Positions 9,001 through 12,000 of a DNA stretch of 26,967 nt are shown here, piece after piece (position 1 is the stretch's first letter; each line of letters opens with the position of its first letter). This DNA comes from a virus. Taxonomy: Duplodnaviria; Heunggongvirae; Uroviricota; Caudoviricetes. The position numbers were made by a program. The stretch is from the IMG/VR virus record IMGVR_UViG_2541047926_000013, positions 1 to 26,967 of that record; one strand, 5' to 3'.

Positions 9001-12000
9001 TGTCTTTATATCAAAAGACTAACAGTGCTGCGGCATAAAAACACCACAGAAATGAGGAATTAACCGTGGGTAAAGAACCTGAATGGAAAGTTGATAAACA
9101 ACCAGCATGGCTGGTGGCAGCAATACGAAGAACGATTGCTGATTTACCTCATGGCTATGAGGAAGCAGCAGAAATTCTTGGTTTGTATAAATCTGATGAT
9201 ATCACCCCAGCAAAAGATCAATTGCATAACAGACTGCGTAGCGGTGGGGATCAAATTTTTCCACTTGAGTGGGCCATGGTTTTACAGGATGCCAGTGGTA
9301 CCAGGCATGTAACAGATGCAATAGCCCGTCGTAGTAATGGGGTGTTTGTGCCGCTGGTGGTCATTGATGACATTGACAATGGTGACATTAATCAGCGGCT
9401 GATGGAGTCAATAGAATGGATTGGCAAGCATTCCCAGTACTTACGCAAGGCAACTGCTGATGGAGTTATTGACCAAGCTGAGCGTGAGCAAATCGAAGAG
9501 AACAGCTACCAAGTAATGGCGAAGTGGCAGGAGCATTTAACACTGTTATTTCGTGTTTTTTGTGCGCCGGAAAAGAGTAACGCCCGCGAGTGTGCAGCTC
9601 CGGGCGTCGTGGCGTCGATTGCTTCTGGTTGTGGAGAAACTAACGCATGAACAGTTTAACAACACACTACCGTCGCTCGCAACTGATTGCGCTTCCTGTA
9701 CCGGGTGGAAAAGCGAAGGTGGAGTATTGCTATGCAGTAAATGTACCAGGTGACAGGGAAATTGTAACCCACAGCTTTGCTGAGTGGGCTGTGGGTGATT
9801 TCAACCGGCAGAAGGAGACAGTCCTTTGCGACAAGTTAACCGCTGGTTCAAAGATCACTACGGAGTACCCGTCAGAGTCATTCGTTGGGAGCCGGAAACA
9901 CAACGGGTTATCTACCTCCGTGAAGGCTATGAGCATGAGTGCTTCAGTCCGCTCGAACAGTTTCGTCGTAAATTCAGGGAAATAGAGGTCGGTCATGAGC
10001 ACTAAATTAACCGGCTATGTATGGGATGGTTGCGCTGCGTCAGGCATGAAGTTATCCAGCGTGGCAATTATGGCCCGCCTGGCTGATTTCAGTAATGACG
10101 AAGGTGTGTGCTGGCCATCAATTGAAACCATTGCCCGCCAGATTGGCGCGGGGATGAGTACCGTCAGAACGGCTATCGCACGGCTGGAAGCAGAAGGCTG
10201 GTTAACGCGTAAGGCGCGTCGCCAGGGTAACCGCAATGCGTCGAATGTTTATCAGCTTAACGTTGCGAAGCTTCAGGCAGCGGCATTTTCTCAACTGTCA
10301 GATTCTGACCCGTCAAAATCTGACGCATCAAAATCTGACCCGTCAAAATTTGATGCGTCGAAATCTGGCAAAAAAGCGGGTTTTCACCCGTCAGAATCTG
10401 GCGGGGATCCGTCAGTAAAATCAAAACATGATCCGTCAGATAAAAAACCTTCTCGTCCGGACGCTTCGCAACCGGACACGCAGACGGATGAACAGGATTT
10501 TTTAACTCGCCATCCTGATGCGGTTGTATTCAGCCCTAAAAAGCGCCAGTGGGGAACGCAGGATGATTTGACCTGCGCACAGTGGCTCTGGAAAAAAATC
10601 ATCGCCCTGTACGAGCAGTCCGCCGAATGTGACGGCGAGGTGGTTCGTCCCAAAGAACCGAACTGGACAGCCTGGGCAAACGAAATTCGCCTGATGTGTG
10701 TGCAGGATGGTCGTACTCACAAACAAATCTGCGAGATGTACAGCCGCGTCAGCCGCGATCCGTTCTGGTGCCGTAACGTGCTCAGCCCGTCGAAGTTGCG
10801 GGAAAAATGGGATGAGCTTTCCCTGCGCTTATCGCCGTCCGTCAGCACGCACACAGAAAAACGTGAAGACCCGTACTTCAAAGCCAGTTACGACAACGTG
10901 GACTACAGCCAGATCCCGGCAGGATTCAGGGGGTGATTATGAGTCTTTTGAATGAAGTTCAGAAATTCATTGAAGCCCATCCGGGGTGTACTTCCGGAGA
11001 CATTGCGGATGCTTTTGCAGGTTACTCACGGCAGCGCGTTCTGCAGTCAGCAAGCAAGTTACGTCAGAGTGGGCGTGTGGCTCACCGTTGTGAAGGAGAT
11101 ACACGCAGACATTTCCCACGCCTGACTGAGAGAGCGCAGGAGCCGGAACCACAACCAGTTCGTGAAACCAAACCTGTGCGCAATTTCTATGTCGGCACTA
11201 ACGATCCCCGGGTGATTTTGTGCCTGACCCGCCAGGCTGAAGAGCTGGAGTCCAGGGGTTTATACCGTCGTGCTGCAACGGTGTGGATGGCGGCATTCCG
11301 AGAAAGCCACTCCCAGCCAGAACGAAACAATTTTCTGGCGCGTCGTGAGCAGTGCTTACGGAAAAGCAGCAAGCGAGCTGTATCGGGTGATGAGTGGTAT
11401 CTGTCAGGGAATTACGTGGGGGCTTAATGAGTAATAAATATTGCCAGGAGCTGGTGGAACTGCGGAACAAACCAGCCCATGAACTGAAGGAAGTGGGTGA
11501 TCAGTGGCGCACGCCGGACAACATTTTCTGGGGAATTAACACCCTGTTTGGCCCGTTTGTTCTGGATCTGTTCACTGACGGTGATAACGCCAAATGTGCC
11601 GCGTATTACACGGCGGAAGACAACGCGCTGGCGCATGACTGGTCAGAACGCCTTGCGGAGCTTAAAGGTGCTGCCTTTGGTAATCCTCCATACAGCCGCG
11701 CCAGTCAGCATGAAGGGCAATACATCACCGGCATGCGTTACATCATGAAACATGCCAGTGCCATGCGTGATAAGGGCGGGCGCTATGTTTTCCTGATCAA
11801 AGCTGCCACCAGCGAAGTGTGGTGGCCGGAAGATGCGGACCATATTGCTTTTATTCGCGGGCGTATTGGTTTTGAACTGCCTGCCTGGTTTATCCCGAAG
11901 GACGAGAAGCAGGTGCCGACAGGAGCTTTTTTCGCTGGTGCTATTGCTGTTTTTGACAAGACCTGGAAGGGACCGGCAATCAGCTACATCGGGCGCGATG

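Follow-up and report, generated by a model that had tools for sequence, protein, structure and literature searches.

How many genes lie immediately upstream of the replication initiator in a lambdoid (pro)phage of Escherichia coli, and in which reading frames are they read? The question is raised by a 26,967-nucleotide (nt) stretch of Caudoviricetes DNA, IMG/VR record IMGVR_UViG_2541047926_000013, positions 1 to 26,967 (hereafter the window), in which an ATG-initiated open reading frame (ORF) of 112 amino acids (aa), ymfM (9647-9985, plus strand), becomes Ser-rich in its 3′ half, and a different frame opens there with AAGGAG and a TTG codon at 9826 to encode a protein-like sequence of 59 residues. 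The original prediction saw in this arrangement an unannotated small gene, a frameshift site, or a sequencing insertion/deletion (indel). From a comparison of 37 unique species-level loci, taken from species-representative genomes, we consider it likely that two separately initiated genes, ymfM and a member of the DUF4222 family, share 160 nt in different frames (9826-9985; DUF4222 codons 1-53 and YmfM residues 60-112) and that both are maintained, with the second half of ymfM, referred to here as its tail, kept open as far as a fixed end.

The ORF that opens at 9826 lies in the −1 frame relative to ymfM, on the same strand, and runs to a TAA codon at 10003-10005. Its TTG lies 8 nt beyond the AAGGAG noted in the original prediction, a Shine-Dalgarno sequence at 9812-9817, and a TGA in the same frame stands 30 nt upstream of the TTG (9796-9798). 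The protein-like character of the product is borne out by an end-to-end match to Pfam DUF4222 (PF13973; residues 2-53 on model positions 3-52/53; 67.3 bits, cut-off 27, E = 8.6e-19) and by its assignment to phrog_1343; like its relatives in these families, this full-length member is small and adjoins a phage replication initiator. Searches found 139-269 homologues in Enterobacteriaceae, 64-100% identical and spread over many enterobacterial genera; the best 120 matches of a profile search for more distant proteins were all close relatives, and distant copies were found by tblastn against phage genomes. Across the 37 loci the start is at a common position (ATG in 32, GTG in 2, TTG in 3) and product length is mostly 59-86 aa; most relatives have a GGAGG/AAGGAG-like sequence in front of the start. 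Within the overlap, diversity at the three DUF4222 codon positions is.18/.12/.44, and that of the adjacent initiator gene is.10/.05/.45 (third position.446). All five differences in the overlap between the window and the K-12-type copy in the cryptic prophage e14 fall on DUF4222 third positions, leaving the DUF4222 protein identical and altering the YmfM tail at 5 residues. AlphaFold2 models DUF4222 as a small beta-barrel with a predicted local distance difference test (pLDDT) score of 82.5, and a sequence search of the PDB with the DUF4222 profile gave no match. Taken together, the comparative evidence indicates that the 59-aa ORF is a real, conserved and separately initiated DUF4222 gene, and that DUF4222 is the frame of the 160-nt overlap that is under amino acid purifying selection. 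Two loci carry disrupted copies, through a GAG-to-TAG change at codon 46 in L023 (71-253) and a TGG-to-TGA change at codon 7 in L039 (2501-2680); neither change interrupts the ymfM frame, which reaches its usual stop in both.

The small gene foreseen by the original prediction is thus present, and whether it can be called unannotated depends on the source. RefSeq, through the Prokaryotic Genome Annotation Pipeline (PGAP), lists it as a "DUF4222 domain-containing protein" (WP_001250269.1) with identical coordinates and leaves out ymfM; Prokka-style phage records list the 112-aa "putative protein YmfM" and leave out the 59-aa ORF, and the K-12 reference annotation makes the same choice. PHROGs contains both, as phrog_1170 (the 112-aa protein), phrog_20047 (its first 63 residues) and phrog_1343. 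Since both ORFs are already in databases, the small gene in itself is already known. The predicted relation of its stop to the initiator also needs adjustment: the 59-aa ORF does overlap the initiator ORF, by 11 nt, but its TAA does not overlap the initiator ATG, lying instead 8 nt inside the ORF.

A long ORF that turns low-complexity where another frame turns protein-like is the classic look of an indel, whether it arose in sequencing or assembly or when one ancestral gene suffered a recent frameshift. The distribution of the layout leaves this explanation practically no probability. The window represents an E. coli lambdoid (pro)phage, with phages vB_EcoM-720R4, SKA5 and mEp460 97-98% identical to it over long stretches, and the same layout is found in e14 and in Shigella phage SfIV. 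A 901-nt query around the overlap has matches in 2,766 of 5,426 complete E. coli genomes, about 1,570 of which match over at least 80% of the query at 95-99% identity, and the phage records that cover the region have the two-frame layout too. The 37 loci represent about a dozen genera, including Escherichia, Shigella, Citrobacter, Enterobacter, Klebsiella-group, Kosakonia, Kluyvera, Phytobacter, Atlantibacter and Raoultella. The two frames recur in these homologues, and no set of homologues with one continuous frame and an unconserved TTG-start ORF was encountered.

The opposite simplification, that ymfM is the sole gene and the DUF4222 frame a spurious ORF propagated by databases, has in its favor the K-12 and Prokka-style records that list ymfM only, and a published phenotype that is credited to ymfM. 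It is very hard to reconcile with a concentration of substitutions on third positions of DUF4222, equivalent to second positions of ymfM, with the conservation of DUF4222 across homologues in which the ymfM tail is unconserved, with the confident fold prediction, and with the existence of stand-alone DUF4222 homologues that lack any ymfM overlap; we give it very little credence.

Scarcely more probable is a programmed −1 frameshift that would join the N-terminal domain of YmfM to DUF4222 in a fusion of ∼118 aa. DUF4222 does sit in the −1 frame of ymfM, and the arrangement recalls the −1 frameshift of lambda G/GT in its offset and in having a second frame that continues where the first becomes poor sequence. 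A few assembled contigs even encode N-domain/DUF4222 fusions of 102-119 aa (P0178, P0184, P0150, P0085 and P0221); these are rare and join at different residues, and we attribute them to sporadic indels. Unlike G/GT, the window has no conserved slippery site: in a scan of the ymfM frame of 38 loci, each X XXY YYZ heptamer was confined to at most 5 of them, with none at a shared position near the junction, and the three N-domain types have different junction sequences. DUF4222 possesses a conserved start of its own, with a ribosome-binding site, and in relatives a stop in the DUF4222 frame precedes that start by 3-120 nt (by only 3 and 6 nt in L038 and L017), leaving little or no room for a frameshift fusion. 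DUF4222 genes that stand alone are likewise at odds with this proposal. We also considered an RNA hairpin that would mask the DUF4222 ribosome-binding site (GAAGGA/UCCUUU) and rejected it, as its stability is no better than that of shuffled sequences (z = −0.95) and the pairing is not conserved in other lineages.

The larger ORF is equally recognizable as a family member. It matches phrog_1170 over its full length (1-112/112, E = 2.2e-69), is 96-98% identical to E. coli YmfM clusters, and lies between ymfL and the initiator; its counterpart in e14 has been reported to be SfiC, an SOS-inducible division inhibitor. The start has a GGAGA-type ribosome-binding site upstream and overlaps the stop of ymfL in an ATGA (9647-9650; ymfL TGA at 9648-9650, ymfM ATG at 9647), and among 36 related loci, 28 have a long upstream ORF that terminates in such an overlap or 6-8 nt before the ymfM ATG. 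Residues 1 to ∼57 (9647-9817) show protein-like conservation in alignments down to ∼45% identity, and diversity by codon position in this part is.15/.13-.17/.26-.30, third positions being about twice as variable as first and second positions, as coding predicts. Stand-alone relatives of 59-68 aa with the motif LPVxGG...VNHSFxEWAVGD were recovered from a search of 1.8 billion representative proteins, and phrog_20047 consists of this domain alone. The remainder of the protein differs in character. As the original prediction noted, it is rich in Ser (23% of the last 52 residues, or 31% with Thr); the structure model of YmfM is of low confidence (pLDDT 51.7), falling to 32-41 in the tail, which is predicted to be disordered. 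YmfM is therefore probably composed of a conserved N-domain of ∼57 aa and a hydrophilic, disordered tail of ∼53 residues overprinted on DUF4222, as judged from alignments and models. As a separate observation, residues 19-50 weakly but repeatedly matched large proteins built from DUF7507 immunoglobulin-like repeats (for example LPxTGGxVTYCYxVxNTGxVTLTNHS), which could reflect a distant fold relationship or a mere shared strand motif.

What maintains the tail? In the 37 loci the ymfM frame contains no stop anywhere in the overlap, compared with 134 stops in the third sense frame and 2 in the DUF4222 frame, both in the disrupted copies described above; two of the three antisense frames have 96 and 240. 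Clustering at 90% DNA identity divides the loci into 24 groups, and their median DUF4222 third-position identity of 0.55 indicates that synonymous sites are well diverged. In trials that replaced DUF4222 codons by synonymous ones according to local usage, the ymfM frame was open in only 3-17% per locus, versus 37 of 37 observed. The way in which stops are avoided is visible in individual codons. A Val, Leu or Ile codon ending in TA or TG creates a stop in the ymfM frame if the next codon begins with A, and among 129 such codons in front of A not one has these endings (GTT 66, GTC 27, CTT 18, CTC 4, ATC 13, ATT 1), whereas in front of C or T 61 of 180 do. In the window, Val4 (GTT, 9835-9837) precedes AAC, so that GTG or GTA would produce TGA or TAA in the ymfM frame; the other codons at risk are GTC (9871-9873), GTC (9877-9879) and GTT (9907-9909). 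Val16 is GTC whenever the next codon begins with A, and is GTG or GTA only where it begins with C. On a neighbor-joining tree all eight third-position changes inferred at risky columns are exchanges between C and T, and at harmless columns A or G is the result of about half of them.

Both frames are thus open across diverged homologues beyond the expectation from codon usage, as is expected of an overprinted pair. Amino acid purifying selection, the other property looked for in the two frames, was found for DUF4222 and not for the ymfM tail, whose second positions coincide with DUF4222 third positions and vary freely. These patterns indicate that the ymfM frame is kept free of stops by selection, and in assigning selection to the openness of the Ser-rich half our interpretation goes beyond the original prediction. 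One further ORF spanning the whole overlap, of 90 aa on the minus strand (9730-10002), was rejected as a gene; only 25 of the 37 relatives have its frame open, and we regard it as a by-product of the sense codons.

The end of the tail is even more uniform than its interior. The ymfM stop is formed by DUF4222 codon 53 and the base that follows; in the window, TAG at 9983-9985 arises from the Ile53 codon ATA (9982-9984) and the next G. Codon 53 has the form xTA in all 37 loci (ATA 28, TTA 8, CTA 1), all of these being rare codons, and it is kept although the amino acid and the neighboring codons vary; no third-position change at this site was inferred on the tree. In 35 of 37 loci the first base of the ymfM stop precedes the initiator ATG by 12 nt (a gap of 9 nt), the exceptions being L029 (9 nt, gap 6 nt) and L020 (21 nt, gap 18 nt). 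This spacing is retained across at least five N-terminal types of the downstream ORF, and all seven of the downstream proteins sampled are replication-initiation proteins. The position of the ymfM stop is conserved. That of DUF4222 is variable, lying 17 to 101 nt after the ymfM stop across loci.

The proximity of an upstream stop, within a few nt, to a downstream start is the geometry of a translationally coupled junction. We propose that the early rightward operon (cro, ymfL, ymfM/DUF4222, initiator, perC) may act as a chain of coupled ORFs, a suggestion that derives from geometry: its boundaries are all stop/start overlaps or near-overlaps, from the ATGA of ymfL/ymfM, through a ymfM stop placed in the initiator's ribosome-binding region (AGAGG at 9984-9988, ATG at 9995-9997; region 9984-9997), to the GTGA of initiator and perC. 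In this proposal the DUF4222 gene (9826-10005) would supply a conserved 59-residue beta-barrel and be the frame of the overlap whose sequence is selected, and ymfM would supply its N-domain followed by a tail read from the +1 frame of DUF4222, which would drift with the synonymous sites of that gene. The tail would be open mainly so that ribosomes translating ymfM could reach the initiator start and terminate there. Since the initiator is in the ymfM frame, loss of the ymfM stop would fuse the two proteins, and averting a YmfM-initiator fusion may be a second role of the stop. A hydrophilic tail, finally, may keep the additional polypeptide harmless.

The trp operon pairs trpE-trpD and trpB-trpA are translationally coupled and have stop/start overlaps. 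The ATGA of ymfL/ymfM, the ymfM stop near the initiator ATG, the DUF4222 stop and the GTGA of initiator/perC resemble these junctions; the window differs in that two upstream ORFs in different frames end at one downstream start, and coupling is here suggested by geometry.

Several considerations weigh against the interpretation that selection keeps the ymfM frame open and its end in place. No amino acid conservation was found in the tail by alignment or by codon position, so that its translation is deduced from stop avoidance, stop placement and composition. The parsimony counts are small (eight changes at risky columns), and the statistics are approximate because the lineages are related. Truncated ymfM variants are also found, though infrequently, among E. 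coli assemblies. Conservation of xTA could be due in part to the initiator ribosome-binding region rather than to a stop codon, and translation of DUF4222 alone could in principle couple to the initiator, which makes the coupling rationale for the tail not compelling by itself. Proteomic or ribosome-profiling data for either product were looked for and none were found; the e14 genes are repressed in lysogens.

A rival account holds that only DUF4222 and a short ymfM matter and that the open tail, with no selected role, is a by-product of DUF4222 sequence and codon usage. The unconserved, disordered tail would be expected on that account, as would DUF4222 synonymous sites that vary as in the neighboring gene; N-domain proteins that end after 59-68 aa are known, and the antisense frame that is open in 25 of 37 loci shows that a frame without signs of a gene may be open often. 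We nevertheless regard a by-product as improbable, given that the open frame is expected in only 3-17% of cases per lineage and is observed in all 37 loci, that codon choice at risky sites is biased and co-varies with the following codon, that the stop is fixed in place with rare codons, and that the frame extends into recognizable domains in some phages, as described below.

A different possibility, which we think has some merit without favoring it, is that the Ser/Thr-rich disordered tail is functional and selected for its composition, the delivery of ribosomes to the initiator being incidental. When compared with recodings that leave the frame open, the hydrophobic fraction of the tail is in the lowest 0-2.5% in six of eight lineages and its Ser plus Thr content is raised, and in the SfV/Stx phages the corresponding segment joins the N-domain to further domains in the manner of a linker. 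Yet a derivative in Entomohabitans keeps the N-domain with a tail of just ∼20 residues, stand-alone N-domain proteins have no tail, and the bias in composition could equally arise from selection against a harmful, aggregation-prone tail. We continue to favor two maintained genes in which the openness of the tail, more than its product, is what selection acts upon.

More distant relatives help to place the overlap in context. In Pantoea phage AH07, with a DUF4222 66% identical to that of the window, a ymfM-type frame crosses DUF4222 and stops 3 nt before the start of the next gene. In SfV, Stx2a_1447 and PhiR40_1 (DUF4222 63-67% identical), a ymfM-type frame has its start at the ymfL stop, passes through DUF4222 with the +1 offset seen in the window, and remains stop-free for 280-385 codons; the encoded protein of 278-383 aa joins a YmfM-type N-domain to an Ash domain (PF10554), to which the Stx phages add a Rha domain (PF09669). 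The DUF4222 gene of these phages (1201-1380 in SfV, L044; 1501-1680 in Stx2a_1447 and PhiR40_1, L050 and L051) has a GTG start, encodes 59 aa, scores 51 bits against Pfam, and is fully nested in the −1 frame of an ORF annotated as a transcriptional regulator, antirepressor or Rha; it is itself unannotated. The tail either ends near the initiator ATG, 9 nt before it in 35 of 37 loci, or, in phages of the SfV/Stx type, continues into an Ash/Rha protein. Serratia phage BZS1, Citrobacter phage phiNP and "Elizabethkingia" phage EKP1 (33-50% identical) have a stand-alone DUF4222 directly before the initiator, and there the +1 frame of DUF4222 closes within 7-20 codons, without an overlapping ORF. 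The phiNP copy (L048, 1201-1362) is unannotated and lies between rha and a replication gene in a feature-less stretch of the record.

DUF4222 and the YmfM N-domain thus each exist alone, and the overlap is probably a derived state, stably kept in one large clade. A ymfM-type gene of ∼60 aa may have been brought into overlap with a DUF4222 gene that had stood alone. The Entomohabitans teleogrylli prophage (L041, 2501-2737) was examined as a candidate for an ancestral, stand-alone ymfM and rejected: alignment shows a deletion derivative that lacks most of DUF4222 (∼125 nt) and keeps the N-domain in a 78-aa ORF. That ORF still terminates at the initiator start, with a TAA placed, like the DUF4222 stop of the window, 8 nt beyond the initiator ATG.

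The overlap also bears on the identity of SfiC. YmfM and DUF4222 are both in the size range of known phage division inhibitors, and neither resembles Kil, KilR, DicB, T7 gp0.4 or SulA in sequence or fold, with the qualification that the YmfM model received no fold search. According to a preprint, pBAD24-driven expression of the "ymfM open reading frame" abolished FtsZ rings and caused filamentation, deletion of ymfM in a sulA mutant shortened SOS filaments, and ymfM was equated with sfiC from those results (bioRxiv 10.1101/2020.11.19.390815). The preprint text that was read mentions neither DUF4222 nor the overlap. The fragments obtained in earlier library screens span the complete locus, and the screen paper names ymfM only within an enriched ymfN-ymfK region (PMC6206680). 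A clone of the annotated ymfM ORF, as the preprint characterizes its insert, would carry the ribosome-binding site, start and codons 1-53 of DUF4222, and with them the full Pfam domain and every predicted strand; a ymfM deletion removes both genes. Because clone and deletion both touch DUF4222, assignment of the phenotype to the 112-aa protein is unproven. The only functional data, from this clone and this deletion, do not distinguish the two proteins, which reopens the identity of SfiC; the filamentation caused by the clone could come from either protein. We suggest, quite tentatively and as something we would sooner doubt than expect, that the SfiC block is exerted wholly or partly by the DUF4222 beta-barrel, and that the second half of ymfM yields no functional polypeptide and serves as a stop-free track for the delivery of ribosomes to the initiator start. 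If this were true, selection would be acting on the openness of a frame rather than on its product.

Overprinted gene pairs are known from phages, among them Rz/Rz1 of lambda and D/E and A/B of phiX174, and the pair described here belongs to this known kind, overlapping phage genes. All of these pairs place a small gene, with a ribosome-binding site of its own, in a different frame within or across a larger one, and both frames are kept; the location of Rz1 within Rz is closest to that of DUF4222 wholly embedded in the 278-383-aa ORF of the SfV/Stx phages. The window pair differs in belonging to an early regulation and replication module instead of a lysis module, in an overlap that is limited to the 3′-terminal 160 nt rather than fully nested, and in a ymfM tail that would be selected only for an open, hydrophilic frame, translation of both frames being deduced here from sequence. 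One frame is under ordinary protein selection, and the other is apparently selected mainly for openness and a fixed stop position. In the searchable literature we found no published description of conserved dual coding at this locus, of selection on the ymfM frame, or of the consequence for SfiC.

There are practical implications for annotation. RefSeq drops ymfM, the K-12 reference and Prokka-style records drop DUF4222, and records of SfV and the Stx phages omit DUF4222 and with it the overlap; the comparative evidence argues that both ORFs deserve annotation. The pair is clean, widely conserved and easily manipulated, and it provides a test case for the origin of overlapping genes and for coupling in lambdoid early operons.

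Around the overlap, the gene order of the window is a cI-like repressor on the minus strand, followed by cro, ymfL, ymfM/DUF4222, an O-like initiator of the HTH_36 family, and perC. The upstream operon gene ymfL (9066-9650, plus strand) encodes a CII-like regulator, identified by NCBIfam phage_reg_YmfL (181 bits), Pfam Phage_CP76 and phrog_101, "CII-like transcriptional activator". The initiator (9995-10936, plus strand) was assigned by Pfam HTH_36 and phrog_391, "replication initiation O-like" (E = 1e-135); its stop overlaps the GTG start of perC in a GTGA at 10933-10936, so that the series of stop/start overlaps continues beyond it. Nothing convincing was found in a search for internal promoters or terminators between 9000 and 10100.

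Three further features of the region were recorded. Deep sequencing of K-12 detected an abundant candidate cis-antisense small RNA (sRNA), ECS003, of 116 nt (∼70 nt on Northern blots), which faces the ymfL/ymfM junction and the ymfM ribosome-binding site (PMC3175480). From the K-12 description its equivalent in the window would lie at ∼9600-9700 on the minus strand, and by position it resembles the OOP RNA of lambda. Within the initiator gene, positions 10304-10367 hold 4 1/3 tandem copies of the 15-bp unit TCTGACCCGTCAAAA, encoding the low-complexity sequence SDSDPSKSDASKSDPSKFDASKS; by analogy with lambda O, these repeats look like origin iterons located inside the initiator gene. Finally, a full-length match to the gammaproteobacterial sRNA STnc100 of Rfam is present on the minus strand at 7145-7367, with 49.1 bits against a gathering score of 47.

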